Origin: Longimicrobiales bacterium
Lineage (GTDB): Bacteria; Gemmatimonadota; Gemmatimonadetes; Longimicrobiales; Gaopeijiaceae
Reading direction: 5' to 3'
DNA length: 64,000 nt
Assembly (NCBI GenBank): GCA_965203485.1
Contig: OZ241892.1
Span: 320,001-384,000, forward strand
Part shown: piece by piece, positions 14,354 to 56,493 of the stretch
How the letters are laid out: every line of letters begins with the position of its first letter
Numbering within the stretch: position 1 is the first letter of the stretch
Notes under the pieces: generated by a model
Told to the model about the DNA's origin: nothing
What the model saw: the letters and a program-made list of their open reading frames with translations, nothing else
Database searches by the model: none
Made by a program: the position numbers and the translations under genes

Positions 14354-15202
14354 TTACGCGACCGCACGCTTGCGCTCGAAGCCGGCGGGGGATTCGTAGC
14401 CGAGCGCCGAGTGTCGGCGCCGCGAGTTGTAGAAGCCTTCGATGAAGGCGAAGACGGCGCGCCGGGCTTCGGCCGGACTTGTGAACTGGCAACGGTCCAG
14501 CAACTCGCATTCCAACGTGGCGAAGAAGCTCTCGCACATCGCGTTGTCGTAGGCGTCGCCCACCGAGCCCGTCGAGCGACGCACGCCGGCCTTCCTGCAC
14601 CGCTCGCCGAACGCCCAGGACGTGTACTGCGACCCCTGGTCCGAGTGATGGATCACGGTCTCTGGACTGCGGTTCTCGACGGCCATGGCGAGCGCGCGCT
14701 CGACGAGTTCGCCGCGCAGGTGCGTCTCCATGGCCCAGCCGACGACGCGGCGGCTCCAGGCGTCGACGACGACCGCCAGGTAGAGCCATCCGGCCCCGGC
14801 CGGCACGTACGTGATGTCGGCGACCCAGAGCTGGTCGGGGCCTTCGGCGCTGAAGTCGCGCTCGACCAAGTCCGGAGCCGGGCGCGCGTGGGCGTCGCGC
14901 ACCGTCAGCGCCACCTTGCGGCGCCTGCGGCTCGCGCCTTCGATGCCCTCCTCGCGCATGAGGCGGGCGACGCGCTTCGGACCGACGCGCTCGCCCCAGG
15001 CCGCGAGATCGGCGTGGATGCGCGGTCGCCCGTACGTCCGCCGGCTCGCTTCCCAGCTGCGGCGCACCAAGACGCGCAACGCGTCGTCGCGCAACGCGCT
15101 CGCCGATCGGGGACGCTTCAGCCATGCATAGAAGCCGCTCGGGGAGAGACCGAGGACGCGGCACATCGCGCGCACGGGAAACACGGCCCGGTGCGCTTTC
15201 AC
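14354..15202 (-). CDS. IS3 transposase OrfB (DDE/rve)
   Basis: WVADITY, HHSDQGSQY, DNAMCESFF. Confidence 0.95.
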   Translation of the reverse strand: MKAHRAVFPVRAMCRVLGLSPSGFYAWLKRPRSASALRDDALRVLVRRSWEASRRTYGRPRIHADLAAWGERVGPKRVARLMREEGIEGASRRRRKVALTVRDAHARPAPDLVERDFSAEGPDQLWVADITYVPAGAGWLYLAVVVDAWSRRVVGWAMETHLRGELVERALAMAVENRSPETVIHHSDQGSQYTSWAFGERCRKAGVRRSTGSVGDAYDNAMCESFFATLECELLDRCQFTSPAEARRAVFAFIEGFYNSRRRHSALGYESPAGFERKRAVA

Positions 15203-15513
15203 GAACTCGAACCCTCTCCGGGAATCGAGCCGCTCTCCCGAGCGAACCAGGCCGCGGCTTTTTTTAGAATGTCGCGCTCGAGGCGCAACTGCTTGTTCTC
15301 CCGCTTCAGGCGGCGCAACTCGTCCCGCTCGCGCGTCGTCGTCCCGTCGTCGCGACGGCCCTCGTCGAGATCGGCCTGCTCGACCCAGTTGCGGATCGTC
15401 GGCGCCGACGGCTCGAACTCACGCGCCAGCGCCTCCGGCGACCGGCCCGAACGCGCCAGATCCACCATTCGCCGCCGGTACTCCAGCGGGTACTGCTTGC
15501 GTTTCTTCGGCAT
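15199..15513 (-). CDS. IS3 transposase OrfA (HTH + leucine zipper)
   Basis: LRRLKRENKQLRLERDILKKAAAWFA. Confidence 0.95.
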   Translation of the reverse strand: MPKKRKQYPLEYRRRMVDLARSGRSPEALAREFEPSAPTIRNWVEQADLDEGRRDDGTTTRERDELRRLKRENKQLRLERDILKKAAAWFARESGSIPGEGSSS

Positions 15514-15920
15514 CGTGGACTCCTCCTCGTCCCGAAAGATTGAACGTGTCCACCATGCCGGGGCAACTCCAATATTCCTTGGTCGGCGACAGACCGCCGT
15601 ATCGCACGATACGGTCTCTAACTGCCCCTTGCAGAGGCGACAGCTTCCTCCCGTGCAACGCCAATAGGCGTCGCGGGCACACGATCCACGGCTTCTGCCC
15701 TACCATGAGAGAACATACACCCGCTTGGACGGTTGGCTTCCTGAAGAAATATTCAAACAGCTCATCTCCTTCCTTCAAATGCAATGCCGATGCATGTCGA
15801 TTGCCACCGCCGTCGCACTCCGCGTTCATGAATGGACACCGTGCACGCCTTCTGCTTTCGTTTACATCTACTCCAGAAGCCTCAAGGGGATATCCTAGCA
15901 GTTCGTATATTTTGCTCATT

Positions 15921-17042
15921 TCAAGCCACCTGAGCCAAGCTGTCTCGAATTTTTTCGGCAATACCCATGGCAACCGGCGGAGGGACCGAATTGGCCACTT
16001 GCCTATGCTGGTCAAGGTTCTTCACCGATCCCGTTCTGCTTCGAATCGGCCCCTTTAGAACGTAGGAATCCGGGTAGCCATGAATTCTCATGTATTCCCG
16101 CGGCGTGAGATACCTATCTTCCGTCGGATGATAGAAAATCTCGCCGCATCGAAGAGTGTTCGCCGGCTTGCGCCGATGCAATCGCAAGAATTTGGTCGTG
16201 TCCTTCCTGGTCAATCCCCTTATCACACTTTCGCTCAAATGCGTCTGTGCGGCCAAGTAGGATCCTTCGGGCACTTGGGCAATGCGTTCTCGGTCTCTTT
16301 CCGGCGTCACGTCTACATGACTGTCTTCTCTGGGATGGAAGGTCGTCCCCTTTATTTTTGGTGCAGGCCTTCCCAAGTCGAAAATGACGTCCCCAACACC
16401 AGTATACGGTTTCATCGGAAAGAGATCATTGCAATCTCTTTTTGGGATGTGAGTGCGGCCAGGGAAAACAAAATTGCCGCCACTTCGTTCTGCAACGACA
16501 AACAGACGTTCTCGTAGCTGGGGTACGCCAAGGTCAGCAGCACAGACAACCTGCCACTTGACAACATAACCCGTTTCTTCAAGATCCGCCAGAAAGGCCG
16601 AGAACACTTCTCCTCGTTCTTGCCGTGGCCCCTTCGACGACAACAAGCCCTTCACCTGTTCAACGAGTACGACTCTAGGCTGGAATTCTCGTGCAAACCG
16701 CACGACCTGGAACAAGAGCAATCCGCGTTCGTCCCTTATGCCCAGTTGCTTTCCCGCCAGAGAGAACGATTGACACGGAGGTCCGCCAAAGAGCAGATCG
16801 AGATCGCCATTCGCTATCCCCAAAGTCTGGCGCAAGGTTTGTGCGTCGACGTGACGGATGTCTGCATTGACTATTCGAGTCGATCGAGTGTTTCGCTGCT
16901 TTGCCGCCCGTAGCGTACTGCAACAGTGTTCGTCGATCTCCAATTGTGCCAAGATATCGAAGCCTGCCGCTTCGACACCGATGTCCATCCCTCCAGCACC
17001 AGAGAAGAGGCTGAGTGCTTGCAAGTCGTTCTCGTCTTGCAT
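15921..17042 (-). CDS. DNA (cytosine-5)-methyltransferase
   Basis: LSLFSGAGG (motif I), GGPPCQSFS (motif IV), QLRERLF (motif VIII), RQVANSVPP (motif X); lower GC than the flanks. Confidence 0.95.
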   Translation of the reverse strand: MQDENDLQALSLFSGAGGMDIGVEAAGFDILAQLEIDEHCCSTLRAAKQRNTRSTRIVNADIRHVDAQTLRQTLGIANGDLDLLFGGPPCQSFSLAGKQLGIRDERGLLLFQVVRFAREFQPRVVLVEQVKGLLSSKGPRQERGEVFSAFLADLEETGYVVKWQVVCAADLGVPQLRERLFVVAERSGGNFVFPGRTHIPKRDCNDLFPMKPYTGVGDVIFDLGRPAPKIKGTTFHPREDSHVDVTPERDRERIAQVPEGSYLAAQTHLSESVIRGLTRKDTTKFLRLHRRKPANTLRCGEIFYHPTEDRYLTPREYMRIHGYPDSYVLKGPIRSRTGSVKNLDQHRQVANSVPPPVAMGIAEKIRDSLAQVA

Positions 17043-27401: not shown

Positions 27402-28054
27402 CCGCGGAGCGCCGCACGGTCCGGCTTCGTCCCATGACGCCGGAGGACTGGCCTTCGGTGGCCGCGATCTACGGCGAGGGCATCGCGACCGGCGACGCCA
27501 CGTTCGAGACGGAGGTTCCGGATTGGGCCGCATGGGACCGCGCGCGCCGCCGCGATTGCAGGATCGTGGCCGAGTTCGGCCGACTCGAAGCGCCGCAACC
27601 CAAGGCTTGGGCCACCAGAGGAGATTCGGGAGTGATGCCCGCTGCGGCGCCATCGAGCCGCGGTGCGGGAAAGGAGCCGGGAGCCGCGGGGCCGGAGAAG
27701 CGTCCAGCGCCCGGGTCGCCGCGAGTCCTCGTCGGCTTTGCGTGCCTGAGCCCGGTCTCGGAGCGGCCCGCGTACGCAGGGGTAGCGGAAGTCATGGTCT
27801 ACGTGACGGCTCTGTGCCGTAGACGGGGGATCGGCGGCAGCCTCCTTCGCGCTCTGGTTCGCGAGGCGGACGGCGCGGGCATATGGACGTTGCAGGCCCA
27901 CGTCTTCCCCGAGAACGAGGCGTCCGTCCGGCTGCACGAGCGCGCCGGCTTCCGCGTGGCGGGCGTTCGCGAGCGCATTGGCCGCGCTTCCGGCGGCCGT
28001 TGGCGGGACACGGTCCTTTTGGAGCGTCGCAGCGATGCGGTCGGCTCGGAGTGA
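27398..28054 (+). CDS. GNAT N-acetyltransferase (phosphinothricin acetyltransferase-like)
   Basis: IYGEGIATGDATFET, RRRGIGGSLL, ENEASVRLHERAGF; carries a ~45-aa low-complexity insert. Confidence 0.88.
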   Translation: MTAERRTVRLRPMTPEDWPSVAAIYGEGIATGDATFETEVPDWAAWDRARRRDCRIVAEFGRLEAPQPKAWATRGDSGVMPAAAPSSRGAGKEPGAAGPEKRPAPGSPRVLVGFACLSPVSERPAYAGVAEVMVYVTALCRRRGIGGSLLRALVREADGAGIWTLQAHVFPENEASVRLHERAGFRVAGVRERIGRASGGRWRDTVLLERRSDAVGSE

Positions 28055-30921: not shown

Positions 30922-31321
30922 GCCGCGGCGCGGAAAGGGAGCCGGGAGCCGCGGAGCCAGAGAAGCGTCCAGCCCCCGGGTCGCCGCGAGTCCTCGTCGG
31001 CTTTGCGTGCCTGAGCCCGGTCTCGGAGCGGCCCGGCGTACGCAGGGGTGGCGGAAGTCATGGTCTATGTGACGGCTCTGTGCCGTAGACGGGGGATCGG
31101 TGGTCGCCTCCTTCGCGGCTCTGGTTCGCGAAACGGACGGCGCGGGCACATGGACGTTGCAGGCCCATGTTTTCCCGAGAACGAGGCGTCCGTCCGGGGT
31201 GCACCAGCGCGCGGCTCTCCGCGTGGCGGCGTTCGCGAGCGCATTGGCCGCGCTTCCGGCGGCCGCTGGCGGGACAAGGGTCCTTTTGGAGCGTCGCAGC
31301 GATACGGTCGGATTGGAGTGA
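30922..31321 (+). pseudogene. Degenerate duplicate of the 3' ~400 bp of the GNAT gene (27657-28054)
   Basis: Near-colinear match ending at the same GGAGTGA stop, with many single-base indels and some substitutions. Confidence 0.92.
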
Positions 31322-31530
31322 GGAAGCGGGCGAGCCTTGATCGATGCCTCCTCGTCCCGTGCTTGCTCGGCCTTTGAAGCGAGCACGAGGAGGAAACGCT
31401 GGTAGCGATCCATGAGATGGTCGAAGCTACTGGCCTCCTCGCCACTCGCCCTCCTTTACGCACGCTTCCGATGGATCAAGGACGGGTTGACTCCGCTGTC
31501 GCAAACGACCATTGTGACGACAGTGTTGGC

Positions 31531-31836
31531 GTGAGCTGGCTGCTCTGCTTCGAATGGAACCCAGCCAAGGCCGCCGCCAACCGCCGCAAGCACGGCATTG
31601 CGTTCGATCTGGCAGCTACCGTGTTCCAGGACCCCGGCGCCATGTCGATTCCCGACGACGACCACAGCGAACACGAGGAAAGGTGGGCGACCATGGGCCG
31701 GGCGCGAGACGGACAGGTGCTGATTGTGATCCACACCGAACGCGACTCCGGTCCTGACGAGACCACCTTGCGACTCATCTCCGCCCGCCGCTCCACGCGC
31801 TCCGAACGTCGGCAGTACGAGGGAGTCTCGACATGA
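31531..31836 (+). CDS. brnT: BrnT-family ribonuclease toxin
   Basis: [34 protein letters not shown]...ERRQY. Confidence 0.9.
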
Positions 31837-34800
31837 AGTCGGAATACGACTTCTCCCGGGCGAGCATCGGGAAGTTCTACCGGGAGAGGGCCAGCGTTCG
31901 CCTGCCGGACGGGGGTCCCGACCAACGCCCGGATGACCGCCGGACCCCGCAGTTCGACAAGCTGATCGCCCTCCTGAAGGAACTATTCCAGCTAGACCGA
32001 CCCGACTTGGACTTCGGGTTCTACCGCATCATGCACGCCAAGAGCGCCGAGATCACGAAGTTCCTGGAACAGGACCTGCTGCCGCAGGTGCGCGACGCGC
32101 TATCTCAGTACCAGTCAGCGGACAAGGCCGTACTGGAACGAGAATTGACCGACGCCTTGCGAAGTGCCGAAGCCCTCGGCGTGAACCCCGACGACTCCAC
32201 CACCGTCAAGGATCTCAGGGCCCGACTCGACCACGCCGTGGACGTAAAAACGCTCGAAGCCGAGGTCTACGACCATCTCTACGGATTCTTCCGTCGCTAC
32301 TACTCCGACGGGGACTTCATCAGCAAGCGCGTGTACAAGCCCGGCGTGTACGCCATTCCCTACGCAGGCGAGGAAGTCAAGCTCCACTGGGCGAATGCGG
32401 ACCAGTACTACATCAAGACGACGGAGTACCTGCGCGACTACGCGTTTCGCTTGCAACCGGCCAGCGACGCCGATCCCATGCGCGTCCATTTCCGCCTTGC
32501 CGATGCGACCGAGGGCGAACACGGCAACATTAAGGAAGCTACGGCCAAAAAACGTGTCTTCGTGCTCCGGAACAGAGACTTCCTATCTGAGGAGAAAGGC
32601 GAACGAGGCAATGAGCTGGTGATCCGGTTTGAGTATCGTCCAGCGACGTTGGCCGACTGGCCAGAAGACCGACGAGCACACCAAAGAAAGCCGCCCACCC
32701 AGAAGGATCTGCTCCGTCTTGCCGAGGTCCGCCTATTGCAGGCAAGTGATCCAGGACTGGTCCGCTGGACCAAAGCTCTGGCCGCACCACACGTCAGTGC
32801 CACTGGTGAGCCGACCGGCAATTCACGGTTTGGCACACACCTAGATCGCTATACGGCACGCAATACCTTTGACTACTTCATCCACAAGAACCTGGACGGG
32901 TTTCTTCGCCGAGAGTTGGATTTCTATATCAAGAATGAAGTCATGTATCTGGATGACATCGATAACAGGGCCGCATTGGCCGTCGAGCAGTATTTCTCCA
33001 AGATCAAGGCAGTGCGGCACATCGGCTCAAAAATCATCAATTTCTTGGCACAGCTGGAAGATTTCCAGAAAAGGATGTGGCTGAAGAAAAAATTCGTAGT
33101 GGAAACTTCATACTGCGTTCGTTTGGACTGTGTACCAAAGAAATACTGGCCTAATGTCATGGCAAATCACGCCCAGCGTCACGAATGGACAACTCTATTG
33201 TCACATGACGGACACGATCGCGACTCGACTGGCATCGATTTCAACGGTTCCGGAGCCCTCGGTGATCATCCTGGCCTACTTGTCGATACATGCCATTATG
33301 ATAGTCAGTTTCGCGATCAACTATTGAGTGAATTCCAGAATATCGACAAACTAGTGGACGGAATTCTTATACACGGTGACAACTGGCAAGCACTTCGTAT
33401 GCTCGATCACAAGTATGACCGTAGCATCAAGCATGTCTACATCGACCCTCCGTACAACACAGACGCGACGGCGATTCCATACAAGAACGATTACAAGCAC
33501 TCCTCGTGGCTATCTCTCCTGGACAGTCGTCTTCGTCTATGTGCTAGGCTGTTGGAAGACGATGGCATCTTGGTGGTAGCAATAGACGAGAACGAACAGG
33601 AAAGGCTTGGCCTCTTGCTGAATGACCTATTCCCTAGCCACGCGCGCACGTGCGTGACAGTTGTCCACAACCCTGGCGGAATCCAGGGCGACAATTTCTC
33701 CTACAACAACGAGTTCGCGTACTTCATTTACCCGGCCAAAGGTCGTTCTATCGGACTCTGGAATCGTGAGGAAGCTCCGGACATCCGGCCGCTGAGGGAT
33801 GTTTCAACCGGGCAGCACATGAGAACAGACGCCCGGAATTGCTTCTATCCGATCTTGGTACGAGAGAACGACGTAGTAGGATTCGGCGACGTCTGTGATG
33901 ACGATTATCACCCGGAAGCTGCTAATGTTGTAGGTGCTGATGGTACTATTGAAGTATACCCAATAGATGCAAGAGGAAATGAACGCAAGTGGGTCTTTAG
34001 TCGGCAGACTGTAGAATCGATCAAAGGAGAACTCGCACCGAAATGGAATACGTCTAGAAAAATTGTCGACATCATCCGACGCAAGACTATGTTCAATTAC
34101 AAAACGGTATGGACCGACAAACGCTATAACGCAAACAGCTACGGATCAAAGTTGCTCAAGGACATCTTGGGCAAGCACTCAGCTTCGTTTATGTTTCCTA
34201 AGTCTTTGCATACCGTCTCAGATTGCATTGGTGCAGCGACTGACTCTGGAACCGACGGCCACCAGGTCGTGCTGGATTTTTTCGCAGGATCTGGAACCAC
34301 TGCTCACGCTGTCATGAAGCTGAACCGTGAGGATGGAGGCAGGCGGAAATTTGTGCTGGTGGAGATGGGCGACTATTTTGACTCGGTCCTGGTGCCACGC
34401 ATCAAAAAGATCAGTATTGCACCAGAATGGAAGGGTGGAAGGCCGAAGCGCGGTGCGACATCGGCGGAGAACGAGAGGTCGCCGCGCGTTATCAAGGTGG
34501 TCAGACTCGAGTCGTACGAGGATGCCATAGGCAATTTGCGTACACGAAGGGGCAATACGGCAGATCGGTCAGCACTCGACTTATTCTCGCGGGGGGACTC
34601 GGGGGAAGCTCGGGAACGGTACTTGCTCAACTACATGCTTGACGTGGAATCACAGGGTAGTGCGTCGTTGTTGAGCATTTCGGCATTCCACGACCCGACT
34701 TCCTACCGACTCAAGGTGAAGCGGCCGGGTACGGACGAGAGTCGGGAGGTCACTGTTGACCTGCTTGAGACGTTCAACTGGCTCATTGGACTAACGGTAC

Positions 34801-35180
34801 ATCGCATGACCGCGCCGCGAGCCTACTCGGCCGACACGGAACGAGATGCGGAAGGTCGGATGCAACTTGTCGGTGGATTGAGCGATCAGGACGATGGCCC
34901 ATGGTGGTTCCGCACGGTCACCGGTACGACGCCCGACGGTCGGCGCGTCCTCGTGATCTGGCGCAAGCGGCCGGGTGGCGAGTCGCCAGATGGCATTGAG
35001 GGAGACAACCTCGTGCTCGACGAGTGGTTCAAGCTTGCGAGCTCGTTTCGGGACGATGATGCGTACGACCTCATCTACGTCAACGGCAGCAACAATCTTG
35101 AGAACCTCAAGTCGCCGTCGGATACATGGACCGTTCGGCTCATCGAGGACGACTTCCATCGACTGATGTGGGAGCAGTGA
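31833..35180 (+). CDS. mod: Type III R-M methyltransferase (Mod) with N-terminal antitoxin-like peptide
   Basis: [36 protein letters not shown]. First ~25 aa ([17 protein letters not shown]...LP) resemble BrnT-partner antitoxin N-termini; ATGA overlap with brnT. Confidence 0.9.
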
Positions 35181-35182
35181 CC

Positions 35183-35780
35183 ATGGCGACACAGTATCGC
35201 GAAGGGAGCTTTCCGCCAGAAGACCGCATGGGGCAGGTGGGAGCGCTACATCCACGAGGACGCGGCCGATCGGCTGCGTCCAGCTTGCTGTCGTTCATGC
35301 CGAATTCGAGGCTCTTCACCCGTTCCTGGACGCTTGTTGGAGCACGGCGTGATCAGCCAACCCCTCTTCTCCATCAGTGCCTACCTCGAGGCTCGTCGAG
35401 CCGAATACTACGAAGGACTGCTCGCCGTCTCCCGCGACGACGAATGGACGGGATGTTGGTCTTCTTGAAGGCGGTGCTGGCCCATGCCATGGACCACCTG
35501 TCAAAGGCGAGAGCGCTCCTCGGCCTCTACGAGACGATGAAAGAGCGGGTGGCAGACGTTACCCGGTCCCAGTATGCCATTCCTGCGCTTGATTGGGTTC
35601 AACAGCGCCTGGTTCTCAGTCCATGCGGGCGTCCCAACCTGCACGGCCCGACGGCTCTTGGCGAAACTGGTCGACCATGGCGTACTGCGGGTCCTCCAGG
35701 ACCCCAGCGGCCATCGGGGATCCATCCTGGTGCTCCCGGACCTCCTGCACGTTGCCGAGGGAAGGGATGTCTTCCGACGG
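35183..35780 (+). pseudogene. Fic-family remnant
   Basis: HAEFEALHPFLD at 35296-35331 without the GNGR..R half of the motif; ISAYLEARRAEYYEGLLAVSRDDEW and a C-terminal HTH-like part in shifting frames. Confidence 0.75.
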
Positions 35781-36003: not shown

Positions 36004-39321
<3,318 letters not shown>

Positions 39322-43777: not shown

Positions 43778-44953
43778 ATGCCGCCGGACTGGGCCGTGAC
43801 GGGCCGCCCCGAAGTCTACCTGGACAACAACGCCACCACCCGCGTCCTGCCGGAGGTGGCGGAGGCCGTCGCCCGGACAATGCGGGACGGTTGCGGCAAT
43901 CCTTCGAGCGTGCACGCCGCCGGCGCGCGAGCCAGGAAGCGGCTGTGGTTGGCCCGGGAGCAGGTCGCGGCCCTCGTTGCGGCCGATCCGGCCGCCGTGG
44001 TGTTCACCGGAGGGGCCACCGAAGCCAACAACTTGGCGCTCCAGAGCCTCCTCGGCGGGCCGATGGACGGCTACCGCCTGGTCACGACGGCCGTGGAGCA
44101 CCCGTCGGTGCTGGCCGTTGCCGGTGCGCTCGCGCGGCTGGATCGCGAGGTCGTGACGTTGCCGGTGGATTCGAACGGTATCGTCTGCGAAGAGGAGATG
44201 GCCCGGGCGATCGCGCCGGAACGGACGCTGGTCTCCGTCCAGTGGGCGAACAACGAGACGGGCGTGGTCCAGCCGATCGCGCGGTTGGCGACGCGGGCGC
44301 GGGCGCTTGGGGCGCGCTTCCACGCGGACGCGGTCCAAGCCGTCGGCAAGCTGCCGGTGGACTTGAACGCCGTCCCCGTCGATTTCCTTTCCCTGTCCGG
44401 CCACAAGCTGCACGGCCCGCTCGGCGCGGGGGCGTTGGTGGCGCGAGACCGAAGCCTGTTGCGGCCGTTGATGTTCGGGGGAGACCAAGAGGCGGCCTTG
44501 CGCCCTGGCACCGAGAACGTCCCGGCGATCGTTGGCCTCGGCGTTGCCTTGGCGCACCGGGCGGACCGCTTCGAGGCGGTAGCAACGGCCACGCGCGACA
44601 TGCGGGACGCATTCGAGTCCGGCGTCGCCAGACGGGGACTCGCGCGAGCGGTGAACGGCTCGGGCGCCCCCCGCTTGCCCAACACGTCCAACGTCCACTT
44701 TCTGGACATGGACGGCGAGGCGCTCGTCGTCCGGCTCGACCAGGCGGGCGTTCGGTGTTCCCAGAGTTCGGCCTGCACCAACCAGCGCCCCGAGCCGTCC
44801 TACGTGCTCCGCGCCATGGGCCTATCCGAACGCCAAGCGTACGCCAGCGCGCGGTTTGCCTTCTCCGAACTCAACCGCATGGCCGACGCGAACGCCGCCG
44901 TCGAGGCCATTGCCGCCGTCCACGCGAAGCTGCTTCCCTTCGCCGTCGCCTGA
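43778..44953 (+). CDS. sspA: Cysteine desulfurase (IscS/DndA/SspA-like)
   Basis: YLDNNATT, NNETG, SGHKLHGP (PLP Lys), SSACT (catalytic Cys); first gene of the DUF4007-ATPase-PAPS reductase operon. Confidence 0.88.
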   Translation: MPPDWAVTGRPEVYLDNNATTRVLPEVAEAVARTMRDGCGNPSSVHAAGARARKRLWLAREQVAALVAADPAAVVFTGGATEANNLALQSLLGGPMDGYRLVTTAVEHPSVLAVAGALARLDREVVTLPVDSNGIVCEEEMARAIAPERTLVSVQWANNETGVVQPIARLATRARALGARFHADAVQAVGKLPVDLNAVPVDFLSLSGHKLHGPLGAGALVARDRSLLRPLMFGGDQEAALRPGTENVPAIVGLGVALAHRADRFEAVATATRDMRDAFESGVARRGLARAVNGSGAPRLPNTSNVHFLDMDGEALVVRLDQAGVRCSQSSACTNQRPEPSYVLRAMGLSERQAYASARFAFSELNRMADANAAVEAIAAVHAKLLPFAVA

Positions 44954-44964
44954 AGGAGAACTCG

Positions 44965-45921
44965 TTGCGCTTCGGGGGACACCAGACGTTCGCGATCCGC
45001 GGCGGCTGGCTCTACAAGGGCCTTCGCATGGTCGTGCAGAATCCGGAACGCATGGACGATCCGGACGTGGCGGACTGGCTGGGCGTGGGGCGTAACATGG
45101 CCAAGTCCATTCACCACTGGCTTCTGGCCACTGGCTTGGCCGAGAAGGAGTTGACCGGCGGCGGCCGCACCAGGGCGCTTCGCCCGACGGACCTCGGCAA
45201 GACGGTCTGGGAGCGCGACCGCTATTTCCTGCTGCCGGGGACTTGGTGGGCCGTCCACGTCCAGTTGATCGACCGGCCCGCGTTCGCGTTCACGTGGAAC
45301 TGGTTCTTCAACGTGTTCAGCTCCGCGCGGTTCGAGCGTCCGGTGTGCGCAGAGGCGTTGCGGCGCCACTTGGCTGCCGGCGGCGGCCGGACGCCCAGTC
45401 CGCGCACGCTCGACCGGGACGTGGCTTGCCTCCTCCGCTCCTATTCGGTGAGCGTGCCGCGCCCGGAAGAGGACCCGGAAGACGCGATGGAGTGCCCGCT
45501 GAGCGAGCTGGGCATCATGCTCCATTCCCGCCAGACGGGGTTCTACCATGTAAACCGCGGACTCAAGCCCATTCCGTTCGAGCTCTTCGGGTACGCTCTA
45601 GCTGTCGGCCGGAAGCGTCTTCTCGGACGGCAGGCCGCTGGTCGAGCTGCCGGCGGACAACGGCCCGGCGATGGGCTCCGCGTGAACGGAGACCGGTCGC
45701 TTGCCGAGCTTGTCCATGAAGCCGGCGCCCCCGGACGGGTCTTCGCGATGACCGCGGAATCCTTGTACGAACTGGTGGCGGGCTACGAGGCGGAAGGACG
45801 GGTACGGCTGGACGGCCAAGCCGGAGAAAGGATCGTCCGCGTTCGGACAAGCGGGCCCGGGCCGGAATGGATGGCGCGCTACTACGACTCGGCGGACCGA
45901 GCCGCGGAGCAGGCTGCCTAG
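44965..45921 (+). CDS. sspB: DUF4007-family protein (SspB-like)
   Basis: AAGGAG RBS + TTG; FGGHQTFAIRGGWLYKG, LGVGRNMAKSIHHWL, ECPLSELG. Confidence 0.85.
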   Translation: MRFGGHQTFAIRGGWLYKGLRMVVQNPERMDDPDVADWLGVGRNMAKSIHHWLLATGLAEKELTGGGRTRALRPTDLGKTVWERDRYFLLPGTWWAVHVQLIDRPAFAFTWNWFFNVFSSARFERPVCAEALRRHLAAGGGRTPSPRTLDRDVACLLRSYSVSVPRPEEDPEDAMECPLSELGIMLHSRQTGFYHVNRGLKPIPFELFGYALAVGRKRLLGRQAAGRAAGGQRPGDGLRVNGDRSLAELVHEAGAPGRVFAMTAESLYELVAGYEAEGRVRLDGQAGERIVRVRTSGPGPEWMARYYDSADRAAEQAA

Positions 45922-48186
45922 GCCATGGTCCAGACCGCCTTCCTCCGCTCCATCAACATCCAGCTCGACGCCGGGCATCCCGAGCGCTTCGAGCACTTTC
46001 GACCAACGTCCAAGTCCGTGCGCTTGGTCTCGTCGCTGCTCCAAGGCGAGACGGGGAACGCGGTCTTCGTCGTTGCGCCGTACGGGTCCGGCAAGTCCGT
46101 CACGGCGGGATACGTAGGGCACTTGGTGGAAAACCGCCCCGAGGCCGCGGCGATGTTGCGCTTGGTCGAGGATCGGTTGGCGGGAATCGGCCCGGATCTG
46201 CGCAACCAAGTGGCGCGTAGGCGGACGGCGCCGCGACGGGGGCTGTTCGTCCCCCTCTACGGCCATGTGGACTCCGCGCCGGCCGCTCTGCGGAAGGGGT
46301 TGCTGGACGCGATGCGCCGAACGTCTTTGGGCAGGGAAGCGCGATCCGTCGCCGCGTTGGACGCGACGCGCGCCAACGACGTCCCCGCCCTGGTGAACGC
46401 ATGCCTCTGCAAGCTCGAACAAAGCGGACGGGATCGCTTGGTGATCGTTTGGGACGAGTTCGGACGCCACCTTCAAGGCTTGGTCTCGGAGGGCAGGCCG
46501 GAGGAGCTGGACGTGCTGCAGGCGTTGGCCGAGGTGGCCAGCCGCAGCGCCGGCGTTCCCGTGTCGCTCGTGCTGCTCCTGCACCGGTCCCTTCTCGGCT
46601 ACGCAACCGGATTGCCGCCGGGCTTGCGGCGAGAGTGGGCCAAGATCGAAGGCCGGTTCGAGACCCTCCAGTACGTGGACGACTCCACGGAGTTGTACGA
46701 ACTGGTGAGCTCGCTCGTTGCCGAGAACCGAGCCGTAGCAACGCCGAAAGCGGACTTCGCGCGCTTGGCGGCCGAAGCGAGAGACGCCGGGATGTTCCCG
46801 GACGTCGCCGAGGACCGCTTGGCCGGCATTCTGGCGGCGGCCCACCCGCTGTCCCCGGCAACGGTCTACCTGCTGCCTCGCGCAGCAGCCCGCGTCGCCC
46901 AGAACGAGCGCACTCTGTTCTCGTTTCTGCAGTGGGCGTCCTTGGACGCGCCGGTCTCGCCCGGAGCCTTGTACGACTACTTCCGAGGCGACTTCCGCAC
47001 GGACGGAGGCGCCGGCGGAACGCAACGCCCGTGGCTGGAGACCGAGAGCGCCTTGGGCAAGGTGGCGGACGGCTCGCTGGAGGCGGAAGCGCTCAAGAGC
47101 GCGTTTCTCCTGGGCCTGGGCCTGAGCGGGGAGCGGGGCCACGCAACCCGCAAGCAGCTGGCCTTCGCGTTGAAGGATGCTTGCGAAGAGACCGAATCCG
47201 GCGCGGACGGCGCAAGCCTCCCCGCTCTGCGTCTTGAGCCGGGGGTTGCTGGTGAAGATCAAGCGACGGGGCCCGGCCGCGCGGTCGACGAACTCGTGAA
47301 GCGGAACCTTCTCGTGCACCGGCGCCATTCGGACCAAGTCGTCGTTTGGCACGGGACCGACGTGGACTTGCGCGGCCGCTTGGAGGACGAGAAGAAGCGC
47401 CACGCGGGCGACTTCGATCTGGTCTCCTTCCTGGGGCGGGAGTTGCGCCCCCCCGTGTGGAGGCCCGTGGAATACAACGCAAGGCACGGAATAAGGCGCT
47501 ACTTGGAGGCCGAATACGCCACCTTCGCGGGGTTGGAGGCATTTTGGGATCGAATTCGGCTGGAGGGCTGGACGCCCGGGACGGACGGCCGCGTGCTGCA
47601 CGTGCTGCCGCAAGACGCGGACGAACTTGTCCAGGCCGAGGACATGGCCGCCGGCATCGGCGATCCGAGATTGTTCGTCGCGGTGGCGCGTGAAGTCTCG
47701 GCCCTCCGCAACGCCGCCGTCGATCTGTGGTGCCTGTTGCGGATGCACGCCGACCAGGACATGATTGGCGCCGATCCCATGATTGGCGCCGAACTCAACC
47801 ATCTCACCGACGACGCCCGAGCTGGGTTGCAGTCGCTTGCGGACCGTGTGCTGCGCCCCCAGCCCAACGGCAGCCGCTGGTTCCGCAAGGGCCGTCCGGT
47901 CGAGGCGGCCGACTTGCCGCAGTTGCGCCGGGCGCTGTCGCAAGCCATGGAGGAGGTGTTTGCCCTCACGCCCGAGATCGATTCGGAAATGGTGGTCCGG
48001 CGGTCGCCGTCGCCGGTGATCGTGAACGCCCGCAAGAAGGTCGAACTCGGCTTGTTGGAACGGTACGGCCGGGAGGACCTCGGCATCGAGGGCAACTCCG
48101 CCGACAAGGCGATCTTCAGGAGCGTGTTCCTGAGGACGGGTCTGTACTGCCCAAACGGCAACTCCGCCGGTTCCCCGCGCGCGGGC

Positions 48187-48290
48187 GAGACCTGCCAAAA
48201 TGGCAGAACTCGGGTCTCGGAGGCCGAAGAAACCTGCCAAAATGGCAGTATGCTGAGGGCCAGAAAAGACGAAACCTGCCAAAATGGCAG
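48187..48290. repeat. Three 20-bp repeats GARACCTGCCAAAATGGCAG at 42-bp period with different 22-bp spacers
   Basis: Copies at 48187, 48229 and 48271; core CTGCCA-AAA-TGGCAG is a perfect inverted repeat; degenerate fourth copy near 48147. Confidence 0.9.
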
Positions 48291-48659
48291 AACCTGGTTC
48301 CTGGCCGCTCCCGAGGACATGACCGGTCGTCCTGGCTTGAAGGCCGTCTGGGGTCGCGTCCGGGACTTCTTCGCGGAGCCCGGCAGGTCCAAGCCCTTCG
48401 GTGTTCTGCTCGACGAACTGAAGGAGCCGCCCTTCGGCGTGCGAGAAGGTCTCCTGCCGTTGCTTCTCGCCGCCGGCTTCCGAGCATTTCCCTCCGCAGC
48501 AACAATCCGCAAGGGCCGCGTGTTAGTGGACGACGTGTTGCCCTCGACGGTCGAGGACATCGCAAAGCACCCTGACCAATACGTCCTGGACGTAGTGGAC
48601 CTCGGGTCGGCCGAGAGGGCGTACCTGAACGCGTTGTCCGGTTTGTTCGGCATTACTTC

Positions 48660-48684
48660 GGGGGGGGGGGGGGGGGGGGGGGGG
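48660..48684 (+). repeat. G25 homopolymer inside sspC
   Basis: Direct count: 25 consecutive G. Confidence 0.95.
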
Positions 48685-49563
48685 AGAGGCCCCATTACGC
48701 GGTTGCATAGCGGGTCTCCGAGAGTGGAGCCAACGGCTTCCGCGTAGCGCCGCGACGTCGCGTTTCCTCTCGCAGGAGGCGCGGACATTTGCCAGGGAAC
48801 TCGAGTCGGCCGACGCCGTCGCATTCCTCTTGGACCACCTGCCGCGTCTCGCGGGCGGATCCGTCGGCTCGCCCGAGTTGCTGGACGGAATCGCAGGGAT
48901 CAAGTCCGAGCTCGAGCGCGTAGGCACGACATTTCGGGACGAGGCCGTCCGTGCACTGCGCGAGGCCCTCGTGGCGCGTGGCGTCGCCGACGGCTTCGGC
49001 GGGTTGCCGAGTTGCCCTGCCGTGCGTGACGACGACCGCGCCACCGGTTGCGTTGTACCCAGTGCAACCAAAATTAACAACGCCGACTCGCACCCACCGG
49101 CGGTGGCTTTCACGTCTTGCGCCAGCGCCAACGCGCGCGATCACGCCGCGGCCTGGGCGGCGTGCTTCCCCGAGTCCTTCGTTGCCCACCTCGCGGACCG
49201 AGTGGCCAAGGGGGTCCTGACCCTTCTCGCCAAGCCGCACGACGACGACGGCGCGCTCGCAAACGCCCTGTCCACGCTGTTGCTGGGCCTGCCGCTCCAT
49301 CAGTGGAACGACGCCTCTCCGTCTTCGTTCCGCCGACAGCTGCACAGCGTGCTCGAGACGATCGAGGGCGCCGCGTTCGATCTGGCCCGCCGTCGCGGCC
49401 CGGATTCCGAGATCAGATCCGGGCTGGCCAAGCTGGCCGACGCCCGAACGCGCCAACTGGCCTCCCGTCTCGCCGAGTTGCTCGGCCGCGAAGAGGCCGC
49501 GCGCACGCTGGAAGCGGTCGCGGCACGCTTGCACGCGTCGGCCGGCGTCACCGCAGGCCGCCC

Positions 49564-50364
49564 ATGACGACCACCGACCAAGCCGCCGCGCTCGGCGCCG
49601 ACGGCGGGCACCGTCACATCGTCAACGTCTCGGGCGGCAAGGACTCGGCCGCCCTCGCCCTGTTCATGCAGGACCGCTACCCCTCCTTGGCCGTCGAGTA
49701 CGTCTTCTGCGACACCGGTTGCGAGTTGCCCGAGACCTACCAGTACCTGACCCGCCTCGAAGCCGTCTTGGGACAGAAGATCGCGCGCCTGAACGCCCTC
49801 GACCTGCTCGGCATCGCCAAGAAGCCCGGCCGAAACCCGTTCGACATCTGGTTGCACGAGGTCTACGGCGGCTTCCTCCCCAGCCCGCGCGCCCGCTGGT
49901 GCACCCGCGTACTGAAGATCAAGCCGTTCGAACACCATGTCGGCGACGACAAGGCGTTCAGCTACATCGGCATCCGCGGCGACGAGCACCGCGAAGGCTA
50001 CGCCTCCTCCAAGCCCCCCGTCTTCTCCGAGCAGCCGAACATCGTCCCCGTCTACCCATTCAAGGACCACGCCTTGGGACTCAACGACATCCACATGATC
50101 CTGGAGACCTCGGGACTCGGCCTGCCGAGCTACTACGAGTGGCGCTCTCGCTCAGGCTGCTACTTCTGCTTCTACCAGCAGGTGGGCGAATGGCAGGGGC
50201 TCAAGGAACGCCATCCCGAATGGTTCGAGCGGGCGAAGGAATACGAGGCGGCTGGCTTCACGTGGGTGGACGGTCGGACCTTGGAGGACATCGCCGCGCA
50301 GCCGAAGCGAGAACCGATTTCGGCGGCGGATGGCGGCGGCGGATGCGCGATATGCCATCTGTGA
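49564..50364 (+). CDS. sspD: PAPS-reductase-family protein (SspD-like)
   Basis: PP-loop SGGKDS, DTGCELPETY, RWCTRVLK, RSRSGCYFCFYQQ, C-terminal CAICHL. Confidence 0.88.
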   Translation: MTTTDQAAALGADGGHRHIVNVSGGKDSAALALFMQDRYPSLAVEYVFCDTGCELPETYQYLTRLEAVLGQKIARLNALDLLGIAKKPGRNPFDIWLHEVYGGFLPSPRARWCTRVLKIKPFEHHVGDDKAFSYIGIRGDEHREGYASSKPPVFSEQPNIVPVYPFKDHALGLNDIHMILETSGLGLPSYYEWRSRSGCYFCFYQQVGEWQGLKERHPEWFERAKEYEAAGFTWVDGRTLEDIAAQPKREPISAADGGGGCAICHL

Positions 50365-50852
50365 CGCAGACCTTGCCGCGAGGATGGAGCCTGGATACCA
50401 AGCACTGGCGCATGCTCGCCGACAGCGATCTCGGCTGCGGTTGGAAGGTCGTACCCTTCGTCGAACAATGGCGAAGGGACCCGCCGGAGACATCTGGCGT
50501 GTACGTGATCAGCGGCTCTCCTCCGATTGAAGGACCGCTGTCGTCGTCCTGGTGTCCGCTCTATGTCGGGCAGACGCAGAATCTACGCGCCCGTTTCGCA
50601 GATCATCTGGGCAACAAGACGAACGTGCGCCGCATTCGCTTCTTTTCGTCTTTGAGATTTCACTTCTTTACGGTTCCCGGCGACACGCGCAGGCGCCGGA
50701 TCGTAGAACAACTACTCCTGGACGCCTTTGGCCCGGCTGCGAACGCAAGGCGATCTCTCGGCGTCACCGTCGGTCCAGAAATAAAGGGCATCGTCAAGCG
50801 TGGCCTTGCCTTAGCCAAGACAACATCCATCAAGAAAGCCGAATCGACATGA
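50361..50852 (+). CDS. Small GIY-YIG nuclease-family protein (163 aa)
   Basis: SGVYVI...LYVGQTQNLRARFADH...E...N; GTGA and ATGA overlaps with both neighbours. Confidence 0.8.
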   Translation: MTQTLPRGWSLDTKHWRMLADSDLGCGWKVVPFVEQWRRDPPETSGVYVISGSPPIEGPLSSSWCPLYVGQTQNLRARFADHLGNKTNVRRIRFFSSLRFHFFTVPGDTRRRRIVEQLLLDAFGPAANARRSLGVTVGPEIKGIVKRGLALAKTTSIKKAEST

Positions 50853-51325
50853 ATCTTTATCCTGCAATTCACGCGACGATGGGCAGCTGGACCTATTACA
50901 TCGTAAAGCTCACGATGAGAGAGGTACAGGAACACATAAAATTCGCTCATGACATCCACGATGATCACACTCTCGATGATGCGATTCAGCGCACCATCAA
51001 CGAATCCAGAGTAAAGAAGGAAATCGTCTCGTATTTGCAGCGCCAGCACGATCGGTTCTTTTCTTCTCTTGTCGTCGCAGCTCTTGAAGGAAACCCCATC
51101 TGGTATCCAATTTCTATCGCCGACGACGAAAAATTTGCGATCTTCAAGGACGATTCCCGTCTTGCTTCTGCGTTCGGCGTCCTTAAGTTCGACGGGATGT
51201 CGAGCGACAACCAAGATGAGACGGTAGCGGCAACCAAGATGAGACTGCCGGAGGCGGCCGTGATCTGAGGTCGAGGGATTCGGACGCGGGTTCGGTCCTG
51301 TCGTTCGGAGGCCGGCCGTCGGTGA

Positions 51326-53748
<2,423 letters not shown>

Positions 53749-55644: not shown

Positions 55645-56493
55645 TTACGCGACCGCACGCTTGCGCTCGAAGCCGGCGGGGGATTCGTAGCCGAGCGCCG
55701 AGTGTCGGCGCCGCGAGTTGTAGAAGCCTTCGATGAAGGCGAAGACGGCGCGCCGGGCTTCGGCCGGACTTGTGAACTGGCAACGGTCCAGCAACTCGCA
55801 TTCCAACGTGGCGAAGAAGCTCTCGCACATCGCGTTGTCGTAGGCGTCGCCCACCGAGCCCGTCGAGCGACGCACGCCGGCCTTCCTGCACCGCTCGCCG
55901 AACGCCCAGGACGTGTACTGCGACCCCTGGTCCGAGTGATGGATCACGGTCTCTGGACTGCGGTTCTCGACGGCCATGGCGAGCGCGCGCTCGACGAGTT
56001 CGCCGCGCAGGTGCGTCTCCATGGCCCAGCCGACGACGCGGCGGCTCCAGGCGTCGACGACGACCGCCAGGTAGAGCCATCCGGCCCCGGCCGGCACGTA
56101 CGTGATGTCGGCGACCCAGAGCTGGTCGGGGCCTTCGGCGCTGAAGTCGCGCTCGACCAAGTCCGGAGCCGGGCGCGCGTGGGCGTCGCGCACCGTCAGC
56201 GCCACCTTGCGGCGCCTGCGGCTCGCGCCTTCGATGCCCTCCTCGCGCATGAGGCGGGCGACGCGCTTCGGACCGACGCGCTCGCCCCAGGCCGCGAGAT
56301 CGGCGTGGATGCGCGGTCGCCCGTACGTCCGCCGGCTCGCTTCCCAGCTGCGGCGCACCAAGACGCGCAACGCGTCGTCGCGCAACGCGCTCGCCGATCG
56401 GGGACGCTTCAGCCATGCATAGAAGCCGCTCGGGGAGAGACCGAGGACGCGGCACATCGCGCGCACGGGAAACACGGCCCGGTGCGCTTTCAC
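55645..56493 (-). CDS. IS3 transposase OrfB
   Basis: Translation identical to 14354-15202. Confidence 0.95.
   Translation of the reverse strand: MKAHRAVFPVRAMCRVLGLSPSGFYAWLKRPRSASALRDDALRVLVRRSWEASRRTYGRPRIHADLAAWGERVGPKRVARLMREEGIEGASRRRRKVALTVRDAHARPAPDLVERDFSAEGPDQLWVADITYVPAGAGWLYLAVVVDAWSRRVVGWAMETHLRGELVERALAMAVENRSPETVIHHSDQGSQYTSWAFGERCRKAGVRRSTGSVGDAYDNAMCESFFATLECELLDRCQFTSPAEARRAVFAFIEGFYNSRRRHSALGYESPAGFERKRAVA

Follow-up and report, generated by a model that had tools for sequence, protein, structure and literature searches.

BrnT toxins are RNases whose gene is followed by that of a partner, as in BrnT/BrnA of Brucella abortus (PDB 3U97) and the Salmonella complex (PDB 7VD7). 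A class of one-chain BrnT–antitoxin proteins has also been noted, and these BrnT–BrnA fusions, as far as the accessible part of the source goes, join toxin to antitoxin and keep the RHH or HTH (PMC11980606). Toxins of other families sit in R-M loci and are believed to be restrained by R-M subunits of type I, as for PrrC with EcoprrI (type IC) and Ronin (RonA with HsdMS); their activation by phage proteins has been shown, and the available parts of these reports describe no antitoxin-derived peptide (PMC12409349; PMC12707154; bioRxiv 10.1101/2023.04.06.535777). A type III mod–res pair tied to programmed death is likewise on record, with no separate toxin in the accessible part of that account. 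In RtcR-associated CoCoNuTs, a brnT-like gene lies directly upstream of, and co-oriented with, the restriction system, without mention, in the available text, of an antitoxin peptide on the protein encoded downstream (PMC11090510). Finally, M.Ecl18kI, M.SsoII and M.EcoRII are R-M methyltransferases that, according to the accessible part of their description, gained a small foreign N-terminal module, a DNA-binding HTH (PMC12707154).

The locus considered here, in a 64,000-nt stretch of DNA from a Longimicrobiales bacterium (the whole of which we call the window), resembles each of these in part. As in BrnT/BrnA, a BrnT RNase gene precedes its partner; however, a small antitoxin gene and an RHH are both absent, the antitoxin-like segment being part of a 1115-aa methyltransferase, unlike the arrangement in the one-chain fusions. 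Compared with PrrC and Ronin, the toxin is a BrnT and the system is type III, and we regard the likeness to PrrC, Ronin and EcoR22I as one of logic only. Whereas the type III case above has no separate toxin, the window has brnT and a grafted segment, and whereas M.Ecl18kI and its like gained a DNA-binding module, the Mod graft dropped its donor's DNA-binding half. We found no description of a defence enzyme with a grafted antitoxin segment in the open-licence literature, supplements apart; there is none in the available parts of PMC11090510, PMC11980606, PMC5086665, PMC12707154, PMC12409349, PMC8616854, bioRxiv 10.1101/2023.04.06.535777 or bioRxiv 10.64898/2026.09.30.754977. Judged from comparative sequence analysis, the fusion is real, conserved and recurrent, a variant of toxin-linked defence.

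Organization of the locus

The features of the locus, in window coordinates, are as follows.

31487..31515, + strand: putative promoter-like element (TTGACT, 17 nt, CATTGT), a by-eye likeness found upstream of brnT or its remnant in genomes G148, G055 and G096
31531..31836, + strand: brnT, gene for a BrnT-family (RelE/BECR-fold) RNase toxin (PF04365, 87.4 bits; cut-off 34.5 bits)
31833..31907, + strand: grafted antitoxin N-terminus, Mod residues 1–25, a predicted toxin-binding segment without RHH, aligned gaplessly to free partners
31908..31952, + strand: variable linker, Mod residues 26–40, with in-frame length differences among fused Mods
31953..35180, + strand: long-form type III Mod body (DPPY at aa 538, FAGSGTT at aa 817, beta order)
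35183..35780, + strand: fic pseudogene, with ~462-nt and 37-nt deletions relative to strains X5 and X6
36004..39321, + strand: type III res, its start placed by reference to G148 (PADLOC REase_III, 6.4e-220)

The earlier observation that the ORF overlapping the end of brnT runs stop-free into Mod was borne out by a single open frame, 31833–35180, which overlaps the brnT stop as ATGA and extends over 1115 codons from ATG 31833 to TGA 35180. Its product is a type III methyltransferase (PADLOC 1.2e-184) with the features of a beta-class N6-adenine Mod, namely DPPY ahead of FxGxG and a variable target-recognition region (~aa 610–800) between DPPY and FAGSGTT, and the co-oriented res carries SF2 helicase motifs (ATGSGKT and DEGH) and a PD-(D/E)xK nuclease (PDFILW...DPKG). 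On every feature tested the locus is thus type III R-M, with Mod and Res catalytic motifs intact and putative activity. The toxin gene lies inside the R-M operon, and the order brnT–mod–fic–res is common to the window, to G148 and to X5 and X6, which are ~4% diverged strains from sponge metagenomes of another study, each with one contig that takes in brnT, sequence ahead of it and the whole of mod.

Downstream of codon 1, the frame offers no ATG, GTG or TTG before the conserved Mod start at F41; the first to follow are a TTG (codon 59) and an ATG (codon 67), and unfused Mod relatives begin 3–5 residues ahead of the conserved start point. The true brnT start, for its part, may lie upstream of 31531: at this codon G148 reads GCG, and both frames stay open in the 5′ direction. 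A consensus promoter scan scored nothing upstream of brnT, the element at 31487..31515 included, which could alternatively be a coding part of a longer BrnT N-terminus or a short leader peptide.

The fic gene is intact in X5, X6, G148 and G101, and its deletions in the window are confirmed in runs X2 and X4. In G055 and G096 fic is the sole survivor and is there joined to the antitoxin arm. A low-depth X2 contig from the same sample carries a G055-type deleted allele, in which the peptide is joined to the mod C-terminus (window 31921 to 34871).

Elsewhere in the window, ORFs at 43778–51268 resemble by eye cysteine desulfurase, ATPase, PAPS reductase and DndB, and may form a phosphorothioate-related defence locus. 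By eye, we take 15419–17042 (− strand) to be a cytosine methyltransferase-like gene with a neighbouring ORF, 14354–15166 and 55645–56457 to be two copies of an IS3-like transposase ORF, and 51380–53748 to be an IS21-like pair.

Origin of the Mod N-terminus

Mod had been described as having an antitoxin-like start, and its residues 1–25 indeed correspond to the N-terminus of the usual 66-aa BrnT partner, aligning gap-free to residues 1–25 of 41 free partners. Since the RHH of the free partner starts at about residue 23, the graft retains the N-terminal arm without the DNA-binding half. BrnT relatives of the window's subfamily normally have the 66-aa partner directly downstream, and in a metagenome sample of 80 loci (79 scored, 5 running off the contig) the peptide headed an ORF of more than 93 codons in 0 of the 79. 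Pfam returned no match for Mod residues 1–41. A profile of the arm, compared with 177,635 PDB sequences, had 7VD7_B as its sole match (E 0.075, weak taken alone), in the last 11 residues of a 44-aa antitoxin chain that ends on the same motif; the toxin chain of that same entry, 7VD7_A, is the best PDB match of the window BrnT (E 1.9e-15).

Of the invariant antitoxin residues, the seven tested are all present in 9 of 10 Mod rows and in each of the 19 rows of a second, Tiamat-like family of carriers; in the latter, residues 1–17 are 84% identical, versus 33% for residues 26–32, and per-position conservation tracks that of the free antitoxins (Spearman 0.81). The Mod peptide shows drift at positions 10–12, where R12, conserved in 93% of free partners, has become V or I. 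In an AlphaFold2 model of a natural one-chain BrnT–antitoxin protein, L154, the linker has a pLDDT of 44 and the arm 79–93 (pTM 0.78), the arm being modelled as an extended strand without secondary structure of its own; the model fits docking of the arm on the toxin, with no contacts seen, and may recall 7VD7. The Mod model has a pLDDT of ~27 over residues 1–30, weak evidence for a disordered tail given a poor model overall (mean 57.9). The conservation, the 7VD7 motif match and the one-chain model point, indirectly, to a probable neutralization of BrnT through direct binding of the arm. Many one-chain BrnT–antitoxin proteins occur in this subfamily (L154:5665–6204; P0004–P0029), some of them natural in appearance and others probably frameshift errors.

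The toxin and its selection

In Brucella BrnT, the RNase residues are Asp6, Glu7, Lys9, Arg41 and Glu78, with Asp6 needed for activity according to the accessible part of the source (PMC5086665). By alignment, the window BrnT keeps K13, R51 and E92 of this catalytic set. It has Pro at the Glu7 position, as does most of its subfamily, and Asn10 at the Asp6 position, as do 2 of the 41 free pairs. Because G148 and X5 carry Asp at codon 10, the Asn10 change appears to be recent, like the fic deletions, and the window copy of brnT may be weakening.

Purifying selection acts on brnT. Its dN/dS is 0.27 between the window and G148 (P 0.0009) and 0.28 between G314 and G353 of the Tiamat-like fused lineage, over dS values of 0.26 and 0.84 in the two fused lineages, and X5 differs from the window by nine silent and two replacement codons. 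Against G148, the Mod peptide has a dN/dS of 0.42, not significant over its 25 codons, and Mod residues 41–200 one of 0.13.

The absence of a visible separate antitoxin gene, noted at first from the sequence alone, extends to the assembled genome: the window genome (G000, 95% complete) and G148 (92% complete) have a single brnT each and no match to PF14384 or PF12441, and the separate small antitoxin with a C-terminal RHH that marks a BrnT/BrnA pair is not found in the window genome. An antitoxin acting in trans, searched for with three models, was found in neither G000 nor G148 and was rejected.

Conservation and loss of the Mod fusion

Other Mod proteins with this peptide do exist, as the original prediction required: they occur in G148 and in nine further protein clusters (90% level). 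G148, labelled Longimicrobiales, has the same brnT–ATGA–peptide–mod–fic–res order with a linker nine residues shorter. In a quick tree, the nine clusters fall into a single clade (SH-aLRT 86) with the window, G101 and four more cluster members. Residues 1–25 of the fused Mods share 68–96% identity with those of the window; in 11 of the 13 fused rows the target region shares 15–30% identity with that of the window, which places the graft before several specificity changes; it appears to have outlived both linker indels and target-domain swaps.

The module also decays, as seen in G055, G096, G101, G356 and one G351 locus and in the broken fic of the window. G101 nests within the fused-Mod clade and has no brnT in its genome, and its Mod retains the linker but no longer has the YDFS..GKFY core, from which it appears that brnT and the peptide core were lost together. 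What is left in G055 and G096 is a collapsed locus with brnT deleted, where the peptide reads on into fic.

The upstream context differs among fused loci; in G148, what we take by eye to be an HTH plus Zn-peptidase-like gene (L033:12916–14067) lies directly ahead of brnT. Just ahead of the island in the window lies a 2.4-kb ORF between two direct copies, each about 400 nt long (27657–28054 and 30922–31321; 82–96%, varying by segment), of the 3′ portion of an acetyltransferase-like gene. In G096, which belongs to the same genus, the brnT remnant follows this gene too, a position suggestive of an insertion site. The window genome has a second long-form type III mod, without the peptide, at C1:1830823–1833603 (L029).

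The graft on other enzymes

The graft extends beyond Mod, to enzymes that the original prediction did not cover. Among proteins of 131–2000 aa there were 64 matches, 29 to the whole antitoxin and 35 to the arm only, at or near the N-terminus. The 35 arm-only clusters comprise 9 Mods, 19 Tiamat-like ATPase–helicases, one DrmD-like SNF2 helicase (4e-111), one HEPN AbiU2-like protein by structure (TM 0.73, a lead), two SnoaL-like proteins, two small unassigned proteins and one Fic remnant. Defence-type enzymes thus make up 29 of the 35, a count that amounts to only two large clades and one singleton, the clusters being kin. One further arm carrier is a PD-(D/E)xK nuclease, the start of whose linker is shared with the DrmD-like fusion.

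The Tiamat-like family (PADLOC TmtA, 3e-51) has by Pfam a GHL ATPase and a UvrB-like SF2 helicase, the same domain make-up as the Tiamat-like type III-A proteins described in bioRxiv 10.64898/2026.09.30.754977, the main text of which does not contain the word “BrnT”. In 53 genomes of a gammaproteobacterial family (an order-level search gave the same 53), the Tiamat-like graft follows brnT by ATGA in four. In G314, brnT is intact and the partner runs off the contig; in G353, brnT is intact and the partner truncated; in G351, brnT is frameshifted; and in G356 both are broken. The arm has a dN/dS of 0.12–0.34. Truncated partners beside an intact brnT, in G353 and G333, imply that the enzyme body is not protected and can be done without, provided that the arm is still produced.

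In G332, the gene after brnT is a 1756-codon nuclease–helicase–methyltransferase frame that starts with the N-terminus of another antitoxin class. From its domain order we take this enzyme to be type ISP-like; PADLOC calls it IIG. The G332 toxin does not group with the other toxins (p-AU 0.044, marginal), and therefore the grafts have at least two origins; for the Mod and Tiamat-like grafts, one origin and two are indistinguishable (p-AU 0.50).

As a baseline, a co-oriented defence gene, in both cases the same type I hsdR, lies directly downstream in 2 of 59 free pairs with at least 600 nt downstream, of which 29 had an ORF to scan. Because this baseline comes from other habitats and the arm-only clusters are kin, the enrichment of grafts on defence enzymes is suggestive only. 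The two hsdR cases have a free brnT–antitoxin pair 8 nt upstream of the gene (L167:1898, L175:983), a layout that could represent a pre-fusion precursor state.

These counts reflect peptide-based searches, which miss brnT without the peptide, and protein searches, which catch in-frame joins only. A search for grafts of other antitoxin classes was dominated by one-chain toxin–antitoxin proteins, none of the 120 listed of 1355 matches exceeding 196 aa, and bears little on how common such grafts are; a representative-protein search gave one protein above 200 aa among the best 150 of 1211. Viral contigs yielded two loci, neither a fusion. At L152:1182–1410, an RHH-less arm runs into a small domain that we presume to be YegP/DUF1508-like, where the contig ends.

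A proposed tethered tag and its alternatives

The suggestion that Mod may act as the antitoxin gains support from the identity of its N-terminus with that of the BrnT partner, the conserved fusion, the lack of any other antitoxin, the invariant residues, and the joint loss with brnT. We consider it somewhat more probable than not that the Mod tag neutralizes the BrnT encoded upstream, so that Mod would be the antitoxin and its loss would bring addiction or back-up killing. Most likely, the first part of the antitoxin gene was fused to the gene behind it by an old deletion; RHH loss would have ended autorepression of the operon by the antitoxin. BrnT, presumably an active RNase in the window's clade, would then be carried on a flexible Mod tail, with 1:1 supply ensured by the ATGA coupling. 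If the supply of Mod stopped, through island loss or host shut-off, or if Mod were degraded, BrnT would be freed and translation stopped, the result being an addiction module doubling as back-up defence. Against this reading stand the Asn at the Asp6 position, the drift of the Mod arm and the truncated partners beside intact brnT, together with the frequent module loss and the fusions to non-defence proteins (the two SnoaL-like, the two small proteins and the Fic remnants).

The last two of these observations, the decay in G055, G096, G101, G351 and G356 and the non-defence fusions, lend weight to an alternative in which the fusion is a scar: through the deletion, mod would have acquired a promoter freed from repression and a coupled start, and the toxin, useless for defence, is lost whenever mutated. 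The peptide would be retained because Mod has no other in-frame start and a live BrnT must be covered, and a ready precursor exists in the free pairs ahead of hsdR in L167 and L175. However, selection on brnT is purifying in the two fused lineages compared, at dS 0.26 and 0.84, distances over which a useless RNase should vanish, and the long-lived, multi-cluster fusions are all on defence enzymes. On this evidence we hold the scar to be unlikely, although not by any means far-fetched.

Less probable still is a true guard of the PrrC or Ronin kind, in which a phage anti-restriction protein would bind Mod or Res, changing the complex and releasing BrnT for abortive infection. The toxin does lie in the R-M operon, tethered to the methyltransferase by the graft; the grafts favour defence enzymes; the drifted residues 10–12 could lower affinity; and for PrrC, Ronin and EcoR22I the accessible parts of the reports describe death triggerable by R-M inhibition (PMC12409349; bioRxiv 10.1101/2023.04.06.535777). 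A built allosteric path is nevertheless hard to reconcile with a linker that varies in length and sequence and with the same tag on unrelated folds, and truncated partners are tolerated; their persistence beside an intact brnT, and the Asn at the catalytic Asp of the window toxin, argue against a tight guard. Thus, of the original prediction, which coupled Mod as antitoxin to release of the toxin upon R-M inhibition, the first part has good comparative support and the second is disfavoured by the variable linker, the unrelated scaffolds and the truncated partners. A tethered neutralizing tag, with addiction and release on loss or degradation, fits the sequences better than PrrC-like allosteric sensing, because the linker varies freely, the scaffolds are unrelated and truncated partners persist beside intact brnT.

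That a missing or extra base in sequencing or assembly joined a small antitoxin remnant to a normal Mod, as an out-of-frame ATG 20 nt ahead of the conserved Mod start might hint, is a negligible prospect and was rejected, considering indel-free contigs in six runs from two studies and in-frame fusions in G148, which lacks that stretch, and in nine protein clusters. Across 31900–31960, contigs of runs X1, X2, X3 and X4 show 0 differences and 0 gaps, and no indel in this interval is among those listed for X5 and X6; X1–X3 possibly represent the source sample, the independent support therefore coming from X4, X5 and X6. The caveat that ATG 31933 might be a normal Mod start falls, since it opens a frame of only 10 codons and the junction in the contigs is without indels.

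A broader and more tentative idea, to which we assign less than an even chance, is a portable, self-guarding design: brnT and a 25-residue tag would have been grafted in at least two independent events onto unrelated anti-phage enzymes, with the enzyme as antitoxin, such that a phage destroying, silencing or jamming the enzyme frees the RNase. The carriers would be the type III Mod, the Tiamat-like proteins, the presumed type ISP-like R-M enzyme, the DrmD-like helicase, the PD-(D/E)xK nuclease and possibly the HEPN protein.

Implications

The fusion points to a one-step evolutionary route, taken more than once, by which an ordinary toxin–antitoxin pair gives rise to a defence enzyme that carries its own toxin. 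Whereas PrrC and Ronin need dedicated interfaces, a short transferable tag would serve on any scaffold. This makes the origin of guarded immunity testable and defines a likely minimal BrnT-neutralizing peptide. It also offers one explanation for “orphan” brnT genes beside defence genes, which may be covered by a hidden N-terminal tag missed in annotation.
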